Shown piece after piece: positions 34,402 through 49,888 of a stretch of DNA of 64,000 bases. The position numbers and the translations under genes are program-made. The stretch spans positions 62,001-126,000 of the forward strand of contig JAPETS010000015.1 in the NCBI GenBank assembly GCA_026023565.1, written 5' to 3'. A model generated the notes under the pieces. The model was not told the origin of the DNA. It saw nothing but the letters and a program-made list of their open reading frames with translations, and did no database searches. Within the stretch, counting starts at the first letter, position 1. The number at the start of each line of letters is the position of its first letter. The DNA is from Cirrosporium novae-zelandiae (taxonomy: Eukaryota).

Positions 34402-35105
34402 CTAGAATTTACAAAGGAGAGTTTGAGGACATTATAGTATTAACTAGAGTTTAGGTGGGAAAATAGTATGATATGAATACCGAAGTCATCGTGAGACGGA
34501 GTTGATAATTACTCATTACGATCAGGGCATTGAATGACAAGGGTCATTTTTTTCCAACCACAGTTGTTATTTTCCTTTTCAGATATTCAGGACTGTCTGT
34601 CTATTTTTGGTGATGGCACCTAGCAAGCGATTGAGCAACGGGATGCATCTTCTATTGGGCCTTAAATGTTGGCTGGGGTATGTGAACTGTTCAGTATTAT
34701 CTTGAAAATTGGGGATTTACACACATTGGAGAATATAATTTTGATCGTTTGGTTTATTCACTTTCCCACCGTCGTTCATATCTTATCCGTCCCGTCAAAA
34801 CCCCAGGCGGGGAATAGCAAAATTAACTGCAATGCTGTTAAGAATAACGGAGGTTTCCTTGCGCTACCTGTGAATCTTAGTCTGTCAAACGGCATAGAAA
34901 CAGGCTTATTGTTGTTGTCCTTGTTGATTTTAGAACTTGTTTCTATGGTCATCGACTCACCTTTTTAAGCATATCGCAATGCCTCATGACCAAGCTAAAC
35001 GCATCTATCAATCGCGCCTCTTATATACAGTACAATCCGACAAGCACTTCTTAGTAGCAAGAATTTCAACGTCAAAATCTAAACTCAAGTCCAAAGAGCA
35101 AGAAA

Positions 35106-35702
35106 ATGGGAAATACAGAAAGCCATCCCTCTTATAATCCTCATCGCCACCATCATCGACATCTAGACTCACACGGTTACCCCATCTCTTCTACTGCAGC
35201 TCGGGTCGCAGCATGGCGACAACCTGGGCGTTGGCCATCGGGTTTCGGACTTGTAGGAGGCCCACCTTCTTACCAGATGGCAGTTTTCACCAATGCAATC
35301 AGGAATGGGGCTGGTATGGGCCAGTGGGGTGGGCAAACGTCACCTAGACCTTTATTAGCCCAGATTCCTGGGCCTTCTCCTCCTCCAGGCTTGGCCTTAA
35401 ATGAGCATAGGCACCAACAGCTAGTAGAACACATGGGATCAGTGCTACAGGGACGCCAGAGGGCCTCGAGAGAAGGAAGACAGCAAAGGTCGTTTGGAGA
35501 CTATAGGAGAGAGCATCAGAATAGAGGAGGGCAGTGGGATCCGGGTCGGCTTCCGCATCTTGGCGAGGGAGCTAGAAGACTTCTGGAGAGATCGCGACTT
35601 GATTCTGCATCTCGCAACCAAAGCAGGACAGGAAGCCATCGAAGCCACGATATACCAAGTGTAGCTGGGAGCCATCGATCGGGTAGGAGAACGGGGCATT
35701 AA
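35106..35702 (+). CDS. 198-aa Arg/Gly/His-rich, probably disordered protein with MGxxxS N-terminus
   Basis: Uninterrupted ORF with AAAATGG start context and higher GC than its flanks. N-terminus MGNTES. No recognised domain. Confidence 0.65.
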   Translation: MGNTESHPSYNPHRHHHRHLDSHGYPISSTAARVAAWRQPGRWPSGFGLVGGPPSYQMAVFTNAIRNGAGMGQWGGQTSPRPLLAQIPGPSPPPGLALNEHRHQQLVEHMGSVLQGRQRASREGRQQRSFGDYRREHQNRGGQWDPGRLPHLGEGARRLLERSRLDSASRNQSRTGSHRSHDIPSVAGSHRSGRRTGH

Positions 35703-41554: not shown

Positions 41555-42674
41555 CTATCGATTTGTGAACACGAGAGCCCTGATTTCTATGCTCTCTCTT
41601 GGGGGGGCGTGTAGAGGAACATCGGGCAAAATAAAAGAAGCATGAGGACAGCCTATTCAGATATCAGTATGATAACAAGAGAAATAAAGCCGGTATTATT
41701 CTCGCGCTCTTACACTTGGCTTTGCGATGATTATCAGAATCGAATATCTTGAGCAAGATAGCTTCTTCTGGTCGCTGATCTCGAAGATAATACCATTTGT
41801 ACTCTTTGCTGGGGAGCATCCAAGTGGTTTCACCCCGGTAATCACGGGTAATGAAGTCTGCAAAAACACAATCACGCCTAGCCACTGTACTACCATCACA
41901 AAGTGCCAGAGGTGCGTCTACAATCGTATGGTAGAGGGGTCTCCAAAAGCTACCCAGACGTCAGAAGGGGAAAACAGAACCCTTGCGGGGTATAATCACT
42001 AACTTGATGATCCTTACTCGCCCTTTAAGAAGCTCGTCGGCCTCAGATCCTAAGTGATGGCGTACTCTACGTGCTGTTCCTAGCGGGCTTTGGTCTAAGT
42101 TTCATCAACAAGATAAAGACTCTAGAAGTGATGAAGGATTCAAGACATACCAATGTGTGCTTTCATCGCAGGGGCATATGGCTGAGTGCCATCTCTGAGA
42201 TTCTGATTTAGAGGGGCTGTAACAGATTCATTACGCCGCAACTACAACCCATCAGACGAGCCGTCTTATTGCTCCAGCAACGATGTACCTTACATGCCAA
42301 TCAAAAATGAACATTCTGTCAACTTCATCCAAATTATTTTTTAGCAACGGCTTAACGATTTCTGGTATGTATTGACCTTCAACTTGCTCTCGGTCGTAAA
42401 AGGCCGAGAAGTCAGTATTCGTGTTGCGAAAACAAAAGCCGTGACTGTCGAGTTGAAATAACGACTCTTCACCACGAACATCACTGACGAGTTCCTCTTG
42501 TTCCCTTATCTGAAATTCCAAGTTTGTCATATTCTCGCCTTCCCTAGAAGCCCCCGACAACAATTCGTAGGGTTTCTCTTTCTCATACTTGTCCAACCAT
42601 TTCAAATATGTGAATGCCGCCTTGACATCCTTCTTCGCCATTTTCTGGCCGTCTTTGCTTCGAACGAGGTCCAT
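41555..42674 (-). CDS. AsaB/CmcJ-like non-heme iron hydroxylase/desaturase, 5 exons
   Basis: YEKEKPY, TNLEF, DVRG..FQLDSHGF, FIFDW.LR, AHID (HxD across a splice), RVRIINFWRPL, PLALCDGST, KWYYL.DQ.PEE..LLKIFDS, CPHASF, RESIEIRALVF. Start at 42,674 or 42,641. Confidence 0.88.
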
Positions 42675-43082
42675 CAGTTGCTTTAAGTGCTTTCAAGAAT
42701 CAACCAATATCCATAATCCCCCACGGCTAAATTCTAGATGACCTTGGGTTCAAATGTACTGGATCTTCGCGTTCGGGTGCCCATGTACCGTATATGCATG
42801 TGTCACAGCCTAATTGGAAATAAATACGTCAGTATGCAGCCATGAGGTATTATTGCTGCCGACCCTCCACGAGCTCAATTCAGACCAGGATTACGTGGAG
42901 TATTGGAGAGATGAGGGGGAATGATACAATGAGGCTTATTTCTTATCAGTGGCCTTGAAGATATAAGGTAGGATAGGTATCGAACCCCAAGTATAGAGTA
43001 GTACGGCTATACAACCTTTAATAATAAAATCTTCTTCTGGTTTATATTACTTTATAATCCTTCGATTCCTTGTCCTTTTAAA

Positions 43083-43301
43083 ATGTCCACCAATCAAGCC
43101 CAGATCCCCAATAAGGTCCAAACTGAAGATACAGCAGAAAGCTGGGCTGCGGCACTGGAAAATTCCAACTCCGATGACGCCCGCGATCATCCCTGGACAA
43201 AACATGTGAAATCTCCAGCTGAGGTGGAAAAGGAAAACCATCAGGAGGAAACCATTCATATGGACAACAAAGGCGGAGGTGGTGGCACTGTTGCCGGATA
43301 G
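43083..43301 (+). CDS. 72-aa acidic peptide ending in KGGGGGTVAG
   Basis: AAAATGTCC start context, pyrimidine-rich leader, TATA-like ATATAA near 42,961, coding-like composition against AT-richer flanks. No known family recognised. Confidence 0.6.
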   Translation: MSTNQAQIPNKVQTEDTAESWAAALENSNSDDARDHPWTKHVKSPAEVEKENHQEETIHMDNKGGGGGTVAG

Positions 43302-43762: not shown

Positions 43763-45607
43763 TCAATTTTTGTCCAGCATGATTAGCGTATGCATTGTAG
43801 CATAAATTTGGGAACGATCCACTAGACGACATAGTAAGCGACGGAGTATTTGAATTTTCAATTTTGGGATTAACATTACAGTCAATATACTATTTGCCCC
43901 AGAATTCTTCTGTTTATGGAAAAATTCAACAAGTTCCGAATTTGGATCCCATGCCCACTGTAATCCCTCTACTGGACCATCTTTCCTGGCCTTAAATTTG
44001 ATCAAATAATATCGAGATTGATAATCTGCGATATACCGACCTCGTTTTGCAGCTTCATTGTATGTCATAAGCCAAGAGAACGTATTATACTGATAGTGTT
44101 GAAGGTTATACACCTCGTCTGGTAGGCCCTGGAAGGACATGCCGAGGCCGCCATTGTGTTTGAAAATGTTAATCGAGAAGTTCTTGGTGGAATTTAGATA
44201 CTGTCCTGCATACTCTGAAAGTCGTCTATGACTTGTCCCTGGTATTCGCTCCTTGTCTAATTCTAGCTTAAGAGCTTCCATGTGGTGGAGGGTTCTCCAG
44301 GAAAATTCGGTTGCAAGTGCAACATAGTCATTTTTCACGGTCATGTCACACACATGCTGGAGCAAAAGCTGACCAACAAAATCTGCAGTATCATTAGGAG
44401 CAAGAGAATTCATCAAAACCACCACAGCTGTCTCTGTCTCTAGAGACATGTACACGCAAGTAGTACTACCGGGCATGCTGCCGTTGTGATAGATAATAAG
44501 CTGAGAATCCGAAAATCCGCCAACGATAGGCTCCCCTCCAATGAGTGGGTTGTTTGAAATTAGTCCAAGCTGCCCTGGAAGTTGGGTTCGAGCCCATCCA
44601 GCAGCATAACCATGTTCGTGAAGAAAGGGTCCCGGAAACCTAGCATGATTGCTCAATAGCGTGCGGCAGTGTTTAAAGATCGAATCTGGCATAGAATCTT
44701 TACGGCATTTGAACTGTTCCACTGACGCATGCATGAAGGCTTTGTACAAGCATAGGAGATCATCCAAAGTACTCTTCACCCCCCCGGCAGCTTCCATAAT
44801 TGTGCCCCTTCTGATCTGTGGTCGGCGAATCTCGAAGGGAGACAAGTCGTCTAGTACAACGTATGACCTAGCTTGGTTGGTATCTTCAGCGTCCCATTCA
44901 CAGCTTGTTCTTGTCATTCCTAAGGGCTTAAAAATTCTATCGCGAAGCAGTTTAGAGAGTTCGGTGCCTGTGACCTTTTCCAGGACCATTCCAATAATAT
45001 CATAACCAAAGTTGTTGTACAAGAAAGATGTACGAAATGGTAGCCAAGGCCGTAAGGAATAAAAAGCGCTGAGACTTTGGCCTCTATCAATGAGCAACGT
45101 GTTATGGGCAGATAGCCAAATTGCGTCGAAATTGGAGATGCCTGTACGATGTGAGAGCAGGTCCATAATAGTGGTATTCTCTTGGACTTCATTGTCGCAA
45201 CTGCTAAATTCGGGAAGCACGGACTTTATTGGCGTGTGAAATTCCAGCTTTCCCTCATCCACCATTATTCCGACAAGCATTGAAACAATAGCTTTGGTCA
45301 TTGAGTTGATTGAATATCTTGTCTTGCCATCTGGCATTAGCTTCGAGGAGACGTCACGATATCCAAAGTTTGCGGCAAATACGGTATCTCCATGATGCAT
45401 AACGCCGAGGGTGCAGTCTGGGGCACCAGAAACAGTGAGTATTTCGGTGATTGTATGCCTCAAGGCATTGAGACGTTGTCTTGTAGATTCATGATTATTG
45501 GTAGCAGTCCTGGGAACATTTCATGAGTACCGTTTTGTAAAGAGACGCTACAGCTTCATCAAAGGGCCAAATGAAAACTTGGAATTATAAAAGGAAACAT
45601 CATACAT
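43763..45607 (-). CDS. Serine beta-lactamase-like hydrolase (peptidase S12/AmpC-like) with DUF3471-like C-terminal domain
   Basis: SMTK (SxxK), DLLSHRTG, FLYNN (YxN), IFKPLGMTRT, YHNGS (HxG), LSEYAGQYLN. Start inferred across a 96-nt intron (45,605-45,510). Confidence 0.9.
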
Positions 45608-46545
45608 GATAAAGAGACCTGTTTAACTTTATCAACCTGTGAAGGAGAGGAAAATGTAAATTTTTAGAGCCCATTAAGATACAGAATCTCTAGGGAACAT
45701 GATGGCAGACTTGAGGCAGAGAGATATGAAACCGAGCTGCATTGGGCCTTGGACGGGATAAATATTAATTACTTCGGGTTCTCGCTGAAAGAACGGGCTG
45801 GAGTGCAAGTGTGACCAACAACTTAAGCATGCCTTAGATTCTGAAGTATTTATGTATATACCCCGAAGGCACGTAGGAAGACACATAAGCTATTCTTTAT
45901 TTGAGGTTTAATCCTAAGTAGCTCGGCTTCATCGTTGGATGATGTTTACCCCGAAGATATAGTCCCTTTGTCTTAGGAATAGCCTCGTTATTTATGCAGA
46001 GTCTTCTTGCATAATTAAATTACCGTAACATCAACTTCTCGGGTATTCATAAACATCCTCCCTGACTGGAACAACATCAAAGGACATCCATACCTCTTGT
46101 TTATAGACGTGGGATAATATAACTGGTTTTCTATTGCTACTTTTTACCGATGCTTTTGGTAGGCACGGCACGATTGTTCGCTTTGGGCTTCCCCTCGAGA
46201 CGGGCGTATGACAAGCATTAAACCAAAGAAACCTGATCCTCGCACACCCTCTCATGTCCAATATTATTTTCTAACCAGTACTTTCCATCTCTTGATTTGG
46301 CCATCAATGAGGCTTCAGTTCACTGTCCATCTTGAATGCCCTTTTGATATGTAATCCATAGCCTCATATTGAAAATATGTCATTCTATGTTGCCCAGAAT
46401 AATGAGAACTACCAAGGGTATCATGTTGGTATCTTGGCTTTTGCTAGCTTTGGGATGCATTTATATCCAAAATCAGTGACCCCTTTAATTGACGTTCTTT
46501 GTTGTTGCAGCAGCAAGACCAATATATCCGACATGTGAATTGGAA

Positions 46546-49500
46546 ATGGCACCCAATTCAAGCTTGCATAGTAACCCAGAAGATATTTGGAACCAAATGC
46601 TTTGCAATTATCGACACAGGCTTAAAGGAAAACGGTATGCTGATCTACTTAAACAACTCGAGTACACATCATTTCATAGTTTGTTGGAGATGACAAGCCA
46701 AAAAAACGACAGTGAAAGAGTAACACGAACTATTCGTTCTCTCACTCCGGCCCTCGTTCACTTAGACACGTTCTCAATAGCCATTTCGGATGCGGTGCAA
46801 GGCTGTCCAGATCCAGTTTCGTTTCTTTGGGGATTTATTAGGGCGATGCTTATCGTAAGTCCCTGCGATCGTTATTCACGATAAATAACTAAAAGCTGGG
46901 AATCCTATTAGCTTTGCCCTATTCTTTCCAATTTGAGGCATAGGACACTGAATGGGATACCGTGTTTACTAATAACTATGATTCAATAGTGCGCTCACGA
47001 GTACGGGTCAATCCTAGAGACCATCCGAGACATGCTTCGTGATATTACCCTTACTATGACCAAATTTAATCGTTACATCGAGCTTCTACCAATGAGCCCA
47101 AATCTTCATGAGTATCTAAGACTTCTATATGATGACTATGTGTGCTTTTGTATTGATGCAATAAAATTTTTACGACGAAAACCTATTCGTGGGCCATTCC
47201 TCCCTTGAACTTGTGATGTTCATTATTCGATTGACTAAATTACAGTCTCTTTAATCTCGACGCCATTTAGTACGATAAAATATGTTTTTGAATCTAGGAA
47301 AGGGTCTATAATAAGACACGTGAAGGAATTTGAGGATGAGACTCGTATTACAATTGATGAAGTGGTGGTGGGGCGTCTTAGAGACATCCACGAAAGGCTC
47401 CCTATGCAACTTGCCAAGGATGTTGAAGAAAGATTGTATGAAGTTCCGTTTTCACGCAATGCATTTTTTACCGGTCGTGATAGTGATCTCGAAAACCTTC
47501 ACTTCAAGTTAAGTCATTCTCAGTTCAAAGGGGCCGAGAGCCTCAAAACCTGTCTTATACATAGCATGGGCGGAGTTGGGAAGACACAGATGGCCTTGGA
47601 ATATTCCTATAGATATCGAGACTGGTATGATTACATATTCTGGCTCGCGGCAGAAAATGGCCCTCAGTTGGCCCAGAATTTTGCGAACATTGCGACTTTG
47701 CTCCAGGAAAAGCTATTACTGAGAATAGCGTCAGATTCTCCAAGCCCGGCTCAGGGAATTCAGGCCGTGAGGCGTTGGCTTGAACGAACCAAAAAACACT
47801 GGCTATTGATCTATGACAATGTAGAAAGCTGGACAGATATTACTCCTTACTGGCCATGCAGTACTCATGGGGCTATCATTCTAACTAGCCAACATTCACA
47901 TCTAGCCCAAGTGACGGGAGGCTCGGAAATTTCTCTTACGCCTCTACCAGCGAATGAGGGTGCTGTACTTCTTTTAAGACATCTCCGACGCTTCGTGAGT
48001 GATAATGCATCCATTAAGGACATGGCTGAAGCCAAAGGGATTTCAATCATCCTGGGCGGCTTGCCAATTGCTATATCTCACATGGCAGGATATATCGACA
48101 TGTCACAGTTGTCGTTGCCGGAATTCTCGACCATGTATGAGAAGCGCGAACAGACGCAGAGGATCTGGTCCTGTAATCACATGAACGCAACATATCAATA
48201 TGACAAGCGACTAGAAACCGTGTGGGATATTGCAATGAAAGAGCTATCAAACGATGCCCTTGATATTATTTACCTGCTAGCTATGCTCAATCCAGACCTG
48301 ATCCAAGAAGATCTATTATTTGACTCGTCCGAAGATAACTCCTCGATCAAAGGGTATGTATCTAACATGTCCGTTTGTTCTTTACCCTAAAGCCGCCATC
48401 GGCTAACATGAAATAAGGAGATATTATGACATAATTGCCAGCTTAGGAGATCGCCAACTCGTAAAACGAGCATCCACTCCCTCTGGGACCTTCCTATCGA
48501 TTCATCGAGCTCTTCAGCTAAATATTCTCCACAAGCTCGACCAGAACCTAGAAACGCGGCAAATTATTTTCGAAAGGGCATTACGGCTTGTTCGTAGGGG
48601 TTTCCCAAGACAATCTGCTATCCAAGTCCCGTCAAACGAAAACTGGCAAACAAACGAGTTCTACCTTCCGCATGTTCTAAGCTTGAAGCTATTCTTCGAA
48701 CGATCCTCTCCTCCTGTGAAAGCTACAATGGTCTTGGCAGAACTACTAGGAGATGTTGGAAACTACATGTGGGAGCGGGCTTTCTACAAGCAAGGCCTAG
48801 AAACTCTCGAATTAGCAGAAAGGATCTGTGAAAACCTATCCTCAGCGGAGGATGTGATGGAACAATCCATGATCTTCACAATCATCGGCGTTCTGAGCGA
48901 AGAAGTCGGTATAAGTGGTAGACAGAAAGGGTTAAATCGGTGCACGAAATCACTAGTATTTAGAAGACACCACGTGGAATCCAATGAATCTGCCGGCCCC
49001 GAGGAAAGGGTCCTCCTCTCAAATGCATGGAATGATGTTGCATGCGGACTGATCGAACATGAGAGCTACGACCAAGCCGAAGCCTACATTCAAAGGTCGC
49101 TGGCCGTCAAAAACGAAATCCCCATGGTTGAGGATGGCGTTGCATACTTCTGCTATGCTGAAAACTACAAAAACCTTTCCATAATCCGTCGCGCCCAGAA
49201 TCGGTTATCCGAAGCCGTTGAAATTTCAGCTCAAGCCGTTCGCCTGATTGAAGATGGTACTGGCACCGAATGTGCCTCCGTCTGGGCACTGCGACACCAT
49301 AAAGCATGCGCAATCTTCCAAAACGGCGATATTGAAGGTGCACTGAAACTTCATGAACAAGTTCTGAAAGGGAGGATGGAAATTTTTGGTGAGCATCAGG
49401 TTCACACCCTCAATAGTGCATATGCGTGCGCGGTGGCGTATCAGACTTTAGGAAATTTCATCAAGGCATCGTTAGTCTATCTACCCTCACCTGTCACGTT

Positions 49501-49888
49501 CAAAACTACTCGAGAAGAATTCTACTGAAATCACCTTAGGAGTTTACTGCTGGAATGTCTTGCAGCAAGCACAGAAGCGGAATGGCCTGAAGAGTGTGTG
49601 GCTAGAGCGAAGTATCGTTTGGCACAAGTGATGCGCCTACAATACGGCGGCTCCTCTAAAATTGAGGCCGATGAGCTGCAGGCGCAAGCACGAGCCCTCC
49701 GAGAGAAATTGGATCCGGGAAACTTTTATTACTATCAAAATATTCACAGCGAAACAGACTTGTCTCCCAAGTTTGAGATGGCGTTGTTTGATCACTTAGT
49801 CTCGTTTGAAGCTGGCCGAACTTTCGTTGGTCAGATCAAGGCTTCTGCTCCTCTTTCAATAGTGGAGGATGCGCTGCCGCCGTTGTGA
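46546..49888 (+). CDS. Fungal NLR-like STAND protein: helical N-terminal domain + NB-ARC + TPR repeats, 5 exons
   Basis: N-terminal LDTFSIAISDAVQ..PDPVSFLWG (Goodbye/DUF7708-like), VPFSRNAFFTGRD, HSMGGVGKTQMALEY (Walker A), WLLIYDNVE (Walker B), IILTSQ, LGGLPIAI (GLPL), TPR-like C-terminal helices. Canonical introns near 46,855-46,989, 47,190-47,245, 48,354-48,417 and 49,471-49,539. Confidence 0.9.

Follow-up and report, generated by a model that had tools for sequence, protein, structure and literature searches.

Introduction

In bacteria, FxSxx-COOH and Haa clusters bring together a short peptide, a radical-SAM maturase and an NB-ARC-TPR protein, so that a small gene product, its modifying enzyme and a multidomain protein are encoded side by side. 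The HaaB chemistry of the Haa system is treated in the accessible part of a published study (PMC11002830). According to the portion of PMC12048977 available to us, a conserved N-terminal part followed by a variable C-terminal part is the usual layout of a precursor peptide. NvfI, the characterised relative of the CmcJ/NvfI/AsaB oxygenases, acts on a meroterpenoid, not on a peptide (PMC8292354, as far as its accessible text goes), and the open-access literature, as far as it could be consulted, yielded no peptide substrate for oxygenases of this group.

Here, we analysed a 64,000-nt stretch of the Cirrosporium novae-zelandiae genome (hereafter, the window), in which an original prediction, made from the letters alone, had singled out a 72-aa ORF next to an AsaB-like gene as a RiPP-like precursor or, alternatively, an amyloid-like signalling peptide.

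Results

The ORF, designated P0001, occupies positions 43083..43301 on the plus strand, and its 72-aa translation agrees with the one given originally. Its ATG is the first of a 99-codon open frame and does lie in a strong start context, with an A at -3; the segment in front of it (42962..43082, +), as read from sequence, is a putative core promoter and 5′ UTR comprising a TATAA (42962-42966) and a pyrimidine-rich tract. The body is acidic, as claimed (13 D/E against 6 K/R, with Cys absent), and, judged by composition, carries no signal peptide: a hydrophobic run is absent, and I/L/V/F/M account for 9 of the 72 residues. The divergent spacing to the AsaB-like gene, put at about 400 bp, measures 408 or 441 bp, depending on whether the oxygenase ATG is placed at 42674 or 42641.

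Because the codons of the C-terminal Gly run are mixed (GGC GGA GGT GGT GGC), this run is not a microsatellite. The TA-dinucleotide rate of P0001 is the lowest among 33 ATG ORFs of 60-90 aa between 28 and 64 kb of the window, and the gene is single-copy in the genome at the DNA level. Contrary to the expectation that gene callers would easily miss it, the exact protein exists as a singleton NCBI/nr record; the exact sequence of its paralogue P0002 (see below) is absent from the protein collection that contains P0001. AlphaFold2 returned a mean pLDDT of 57, with residues 19-26 forming the sole helix and the remainder disordered at low confidence. We regard P0001 as almost certainly a real gene, the product of which, largely disordered, is best explained as a cytosolic micropeptide.

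Genes of the window contain introns. Elsewhere in it, a 214-codon frame rich in His, Gly, Arg and Gln (35058-35702, +) has no Pfam match, and positions 1-28000, ending 14 kb from the module described below, have a GC content of 10-27% and are depleted in CpA/TpG (index about 0.3-0.6 to 26 kb), which is consistent with a block of RIP-mutated repeats.

Divergent from P0001 lies a CmcJ/NvfI (AsaB-like) Fe(II)/2-oxoglutarate oxygenase gene (41555..42641, -), modelled with five exons and 287 aa, which scores 114.8 bits (exons summed) against NF041278, the cut-off of which is 80. The H-I-D, PHASF and RESIE motifs are intact, as checked by script for the window copy and by eye for the copies at two further loci, C52 and C42; the HxD...H triad and the Arg motif presumably have the roles assigned to them in CmcJ/NvfI-type oxygenases. 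The nearest solved relative, identified with the C42 paralogue as query, is NvfI (PDB 7de2/7emz). On the other side, convergent with P0001, is an S12 serine hydrolase with a beta-lactamase fold and DUF3471 (43763..45520, -; 5′ exon provisional), with SxxK, YxN and HxG intact. It is followed by a multi-exon NB-ARC-DUF7779-TPR NLR gene (46546..49888, +), whose N-terminal domain has no Pfam match and is, we assume, Goodbye-like. This NLR, located 3.2 kb from P0001, had been missed as a cluster member, and it is probably part of the same cluster. Its P-loop (47560-47586) reads SMGGVGKT, a Ser taking the place of the first Gly seen in the C42 and C52 paralogues, and just upstream of the NLR gene is a 53-aa ORF with an Asn/Gln-rich start (46377-46538, +) that could be its first exon.

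The best paralogue of the window S12 gene (E 3e-88) is found at G000:C52:520075, with an oxygenase paralogue (C52:528578) 7 kb away; the catalytic motifs are intact in both S12 enzymes. Between these two C52 genes lie an alpha/beta-hydrolase-NB-ARC-TPR NLR and a 69-aa ORF, P0002, which is divergent from the oxygenase, aligns with P0001 at 38% and has the same Trp-x16-Trp spacing. The window and C52 loci thus hold the same four gene types, namely a family peptide, the oxygenase, the S12 enzyme and an NB-ARC-TPR NLR. The grouping is old, as shown by the changed gene order and orientation between them and by enzyme identities of only 30-37%. The two modules (the window being on C36) may stem from one ancient duplication and hence not be independent. 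In the C52 flank, a flavin amine oxidase follows the oxygenase (G000:C52:531204-533388, L016:5204-7388), and a HET-domain gene lies ~4 kb further (L017:2758-4302).

The nearest paralogue of the window NLR is likewise the one at C52 (205 summed bits, compared with 130 for C45, 111 for C43 and 110 each for C42 and C40). An NLR tree, which included 11 of 13 loci (C73 gave no alignment, and the second dropped row was presumably C56b, owing to a 100-residue filter), joined window, C52 and C45 at 88/92, below the bar for starring, and C45 has no module; the C42 NLR does not group with those of the window and C52 in this tree, which is unresolved. A ranking by per-exon E-values, which had placed the C42 NLR as the top paralogue, was overturned by the summed scores and the tree. 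In the C45 region (G000:C45:351144-362888), a decayed DUF3435 gene, of the Starship captain type, is found ~10 kb away from this NLR, with neither the oxygenase nor a family peptide present. We considered and rejected the possibility that the modules are Starship cargo: of 17 DUF3435 matches, a lower bound, none falls on C36, C42 or C52.

Searches that started from P0001 alone were unproductive, retrieving only P0001 itself from 5.8 billion proteins (one candidate), no relative among 1.84 billion representative proteins and no match in Pfam, NCBIfam or PDB. An Atlas feature search yielded nothing usable, its structure rows reaching TM <=0.46 on a model of pLDDT 0.40, and the same was true of an Atlas search with P0002. 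Of 599 pattern matches returned when metagenomes were scanned with P0001, none was confirmed. Scans of prokaryote genomes likewise gave 0 of 75, and viral contigs yielded nothing for either the peptide (0 of 12) or the oxygenase (0 of 25). Profiles built on the P0001 and P0002 pair carried the wider family searches. They recovered P0003 (one new protein among five candidates); a three-sequence alignment then confirmed one of 227 metagenome candidates, an ORF on contig L038 (P0005), and a further profile search, with eight hits among 193 candidates, added P0007 (labelled Tuber brumale, Pezizomycetes), P0008 and P0009. The resulting new family has seven members, P0001 and P0002 from this genome and five from other datasets.

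All seven members carry a motif that in P0001 reads W21-A-x3-E26-x5-D32-x-R34-x2-P37, followed by W38 (43143..43196, +), and that we abbreviate as W-A-x3-E-x5-D-x-R-x-P. Its W, A, E, D, R and P are invariant in 7/7, as is M1; a second Trp comes immediately after the motif Pro in five of the seven, and P0009 shares ESWAA with P0001. The W21-P37 segment is a candidate recognition or leader element, or else a candidate modified segment. The Gly-rich C-terminal tail of P0001 (43254..43298, +) is not conserved in sequence: family tails differ in both length and sequence, with a Gly-Gly stretch in 6/7 and an F-T end in four. The original prediction had rested on K-GGGGGTVAG as the key motif, with possible cleavage after Lys. 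Neither claim is supported, as the pattern occurs once in the genome and Lys directly precedes the Gly run in P0001 only (1/7). The Trp-centred motifs that it also listed do belong to the conserved element, which is the Trp-bearing N-terminal half, but it had not made that half central. Similarly, a search for small ORFs beside AsaB-like and S12 homologues did reveal a relative, P0002 at C52, but not the anticipated conservation of the GGGGGTVAG tail.

P0001 is the most divergent member (18-34% identity), and its family link was therefore tested without using it. When the first 50 residues of the five foreign members were turned into a profile and run against 7879 frames (434 kb), the C52 ORF came out on top (E 3e-19), followed by the window ORF (5e-4) and then by a frame at 0.58. 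Against the whole 31.4-Mb genome, the foreign P0009 alone matched C52 at 2e-5 and the window at 0.0055, with the next match at 1.2, and the pairwise scores of P0001 against each of three relatives were reached by 0 of 5000 shuffles. E-values of 5e-4 and 0.0055 would fail at database scale; the link is convincing because the neighbourhood is shared. The expected sign of purifying selection was also seen, with pN below pS in 3/3 pairs (0.10/0.55 for C52 versus L038, 0.42/0.93 and 0.40/0.60) over a core of only 18 codons picked after the alignment had been seen.

Outside the coding sequence, the DNA upstream of the C52 peptide (L016:1148-1548) resembles that upstream of the metagenome ORF (L038:327-727; score 53, reached by 0 of 300 shuffles), and the two have a box in common, TCACATATCA. 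This likeness suggests a conserved regulatory element or horizontal transfer. No promoter shared by the window gene with either was found (158 and 268 of 300 shuffles). The L038 peptide is closest to the Tuber-labelled P0007 (48/63 identical), and 3′ of its stop another frame (L038:970-1061) resembles the C-terminal extension annotated in P0007, so that the longer tail of P0007 may reflect a difference in gene models.

At least four loci in the genome match NF041278, namely those in the window and at C52, C42 and C96. At C42, the order is oxygenase, a 66-aa ORF (P0004; G000:C42:444920-445120, L032:5920-6120, -), NB-ARC-TPR NLR and amidase, an MFS gene also being present; the N-terminus of this NLR appears hydrolase-like by eye and has no Pfam match. 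P0004, which thus sits between the AsaB-like gene and the NLR, has 59% identity across 58 aa with P0010 (labelled Peltula sp., Lichinomycetes), and P0010 matches only the C42 spot when compared with the genome. On the grounds of this likeness and its restriction to C42, we treat P0004 as a second conserved micropeptide type. Its C-terminus is provisional, as the NCBI gene model P0006 consists of the first 62 residues of P0004 plus a second exon. The idea that P0004 belongs to the P0001 family was rejected, its scores being reached by 143, 515, 1246 and 2562 of 5000 shuffles, which is not significant; P-W-K/T is present in both peptide types. Next to the C42 cluster is a gene for an RNA-dependent RNA polymerase (PF05183; G000:C42:452331-455804, L033:4331-7804).

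At C96, the fourth NF041278 locus, no NLR or peptide was found in the 24 kb read. A peptide, an NLR and an amide hydrolase therefore occur together at three of the four NF041278 loci. Conversely, none of the 10 other NB-ARC loci is on a contig with an NF041278 match, and one scan of polar ORFs of >=45 aa found no family peptide within ~10 kb of them. The naive chance of at least three of four NF041278 loci falling within 10 kb of an NLR is 2e-6 to 2e-4, a figure that is inflated because accessory regions cluster such genes, and the loci are not independent. A further S12 gene, at G000:C43:99080-103931 (L018:1080-5931, -), stands directly upstream of an NB-ARC-TPR gene decayed by stops and frameshifts; this S12 is itself frameshifted, the oxygenase and the peptide were not found there, and the locus is possibly a degenerate module.

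Discussion

The reading that we prefer, at a probability of roughly 40%, is that P0001 is a RiPP-like precursor modified by the oxygenase, cleaved by the S12 enzyme and sensed by the TPR domain of the NLR. In such a four-gene module of micropeptide, CmcJ/NvfI-type oxygenase, S12 peptidase and NB-ARC-TPR NLR, the helix with its conserved W-A-x3-E-x5-D-x-R-x-P motif would act as the recognition element or would itself be the modified segment. Hydroxylation or cross-linking of the peptide would fall to the oxygenase, and its trimming or release to the S12 enzyme. The NLR encoded alongside would use its TPR domain to detect the product, in mature or unprocessed form, and peptide processing would thereby be coupled to NLR signalling. 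That P0001 is functionally tied to its oxygenase, S12 and NLR neighbours in some way is, taken by itself, likely.

In this one genome, the general layout of a RiPP precursor is seen, in that a short peptide made up of a conserved and a variable part has genes for a modifier and a peptidase beside it. The leader/core idea of the original prediction is thereby retained with respect to the conserved N-terminal motif, the variable tail and the repeated linkage to an oxygenase and a peptidase with intact motifs, but not with respect to Lys cleavage and a GGGGGTVAG core. Several observations speak against a precursor. The family tails are of low complexity and poor in residues that oxygenases usually modify, P0001 finds nothing on its own, and the C42 peptide is outside the family. 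Moreover, the recurrence of the module is seen in one genome only, the sole foreign context being the 1233-bp contig L038, which has no other recognisable gene. A broader proposal, namely that filamentous fungi have an undescribed class of immune-linked RiPP modules, with an AsaB/NvfI-type enzyme oxidising a cytosolic micropeptide, an S12 enzyme or amidase cutting it, a co-encoded NB-ARC-TPR NLR reading it and two or more peptide families being interchangeable, should be viewed as speculative and rather doubtful.

P0001 could also work unprocessed, binding via the conserved helix either as a regulator of the NLR (guardee, decoy or antidote) or as a partner subunit to the oxygenase; the enzymes would then have a small molecule as their substrate or operate at a step after the NLR. 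A short conserved helix in an otherwise disordered chain is a typical binding motif, and the peptide adjoins the oxygenase at 3/3 loci and directly adjoins the NLR at two of these three. TPR domains bind protein C-termini, and the F-T end of four relatives is a possible ligand of this type, but P0001 lacks that end. Guard and decoy models are established for NLRs, as stated in the accessible part of PMC5485727. Nevertheless, a regulator of this kind leaves the amide-bond hydrolase present at 3/3 loci unexplained, and we consider it somewhat unlikely. We take a similar view of a small-molecule detoxification or metabolism island (oxygenase, lactamase/amidase, amine oxidase, MFS), in which P0001 would be real but unrelated, a passenger in an accessory region that was duplicated long ago. 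The neighbours are indeed small-molecule enzyme types (NvfI as the oxygenase relative, the flavin amine oxidase at C52, the amidase and MFS at C42), and at C43 an S12 gene stands beside a decayed NLR, with peptide and oxygenase not found. Against an unrelated passenger, the four gene types have been kept together despite changed order and orientation and enzyme divergence to 30-37% identity, and a different conserved peptide occupies the same slot at C42.

The two remaining explanations are both very improbable. The tail is rich in Gly, Asn and Asp and the NLR is 3.2 kb away, as would suit an amyloid signalling motif working with that NLR, the second function originally suggested. Yet no copy of the tail was found at any NLR N-terminus, the best match being equalled in 325 of 2000 shuffles (the first exons of the window and C42 NLRs being provisional, and the ORF at 46377-46538 outside the test), and the lowest value of 24 comparisons, 40 of 2000 for the whole of P0001 against C42 exon 1, is not significant after 24 tests. 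In addition, no effector domain (HeLo, SesB or PNP_UDP) precedes the tail, which is not conserved, and the neighbouring NLRs carry N-terminal domains of their own, an alpha/beta-hydrolase in the case of C52; the amyloid claim was thus abandoned. As for a spurious, non-coding ORF with a chance likeness to the family, the absence of a database match for P0001 alone and the modest E-values of 5e-4 and 0.0055 would fit it, but the only two family-like ORFs of the genome are both beside the same three gene types, and TA depletion of a coding kind and pN < pS point the other way.

If the broader proposal of immune-linked RiPP modules is right, P0001 would be the first peptide substrate for the CmcJ/NvfI/AsaB oxygenases. 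It would also provide a fungal NLR with a candidate ligand that is genetically encoded, a parallel to the clusters in which bacteria combine a peptide with an NB-ARC-TPR protein; should the NLR link hold, this would be categorically new for fungi. By co-encoding an NLR, a tiny peptide and two enzymes, the module offers a fully encoded candidate ligand together with its pathway, and its two paralogous copies in one genome make cognate/non-cognate swap tests possible. The module may, in addition, stand for a type of fungal RiPP beyond the four now recognised, and its short motif lends itself to mining. Whether or not the proposed mechanism is right, searches of the open-access literature, in the texts accessible to us, yielded no description of this peptide family or of an oxygenase-peptidase-NLR cluster.

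Among fungal RiPPs, dikaritins/epichloecyclins, MSDIN cycloamanides and borosins resemble the present case in having a small precursor-like gene with an oxidative enzyme and a peptidase. As stated in the original prediction, P0001 is not dikaritin-like, since it has no repeats, no KR/RR Kex2 sites and no hydrophobic run; by the definitions in the accessible parts of PMC9233826 and PMC12048977, it differs from dikaritins in lacking a signal peptide and Kex2 repeats. A Pfam scan of ORFs from the window and the clusters, which covered part of the short exons, found no DUF3328/UstYa. Under the same partial sources (PMC9233826, PMC12048977), the MSDIN leader and a prolyl oligopeptidase are absent here, the neighbouring peptidase being of the S12 type, and, in contrast to borosins, no methyltransferase is fused to P0001, the peptides having no Pfam match. 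The accessible text of these descriptions (PMC9233826, PMC12048977) makes no mention of an NLR or an AsaB-type enzyme.

Fungal NLR amyloid signalling systems (HET-s/NWD2, HRAM, PP, sigma, PUASM) also have a small gene next to an NLR, and SesB-like hydrolase domains occur there; according to the definitions in the portions of PMC5485727 and PMC9815663 at hand, the present locus differs in having no motif common to the NLR N-terminus and P0001 and no effector domain. The window oxygenase is a member of the CmcJ/NvfI/AsaB family (NF041278) with intact motifs, whereas the characterised substrate in that family, that of NvfI, is a meroterpenoid (accessible part of PMC8292354). The Tvg cluster of Halomonas anticariensis pairs an Fe/aKG enzyme with a Gly-rich precursor, and the P0001 tail ends in TVAG, but Tvg has TVGG repeats and an rSAM enzyme (PMC11002830, in the part available). 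As TV stands at the end of only one of the seven family members, this likeness is probably a coincidence.

The bacterial FxSxx-COOH clusters (TPR protein, NF040586) and the Haa cyclophane-RiPP clusters (HaaT, NF041717) share with our module the combination of a short peptide, one or more modifying enzymes and an NB-ARC-TPR protein. The only NCBIfam matches of the NB-ARC exon of the window NLR are NF040586 (E 1.5e-46) and NF041717 (4e-6). The NF040586 scores are 159 and 41 bits for the window exons and 220 for C42, against a cut-off of 300, and those for HaaT are 25-33 against 1125; as specific evidence, the NF040586 match was discarded, since five of six control NLR fragments match as well. 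Here, in contrast to those systems, no radical-SAM gene was found among the ORFs scanned and the peptides have no FxSxx or HAA motif, the modifier being a CmcJ/NvfI oxygenase accompanied by an S12 peptidase. On this comparison, the module is in its layout most like the bacterial FxSxx-COOH/Haa clusters, of which we consider it a counterpart in arrangement and not a member.
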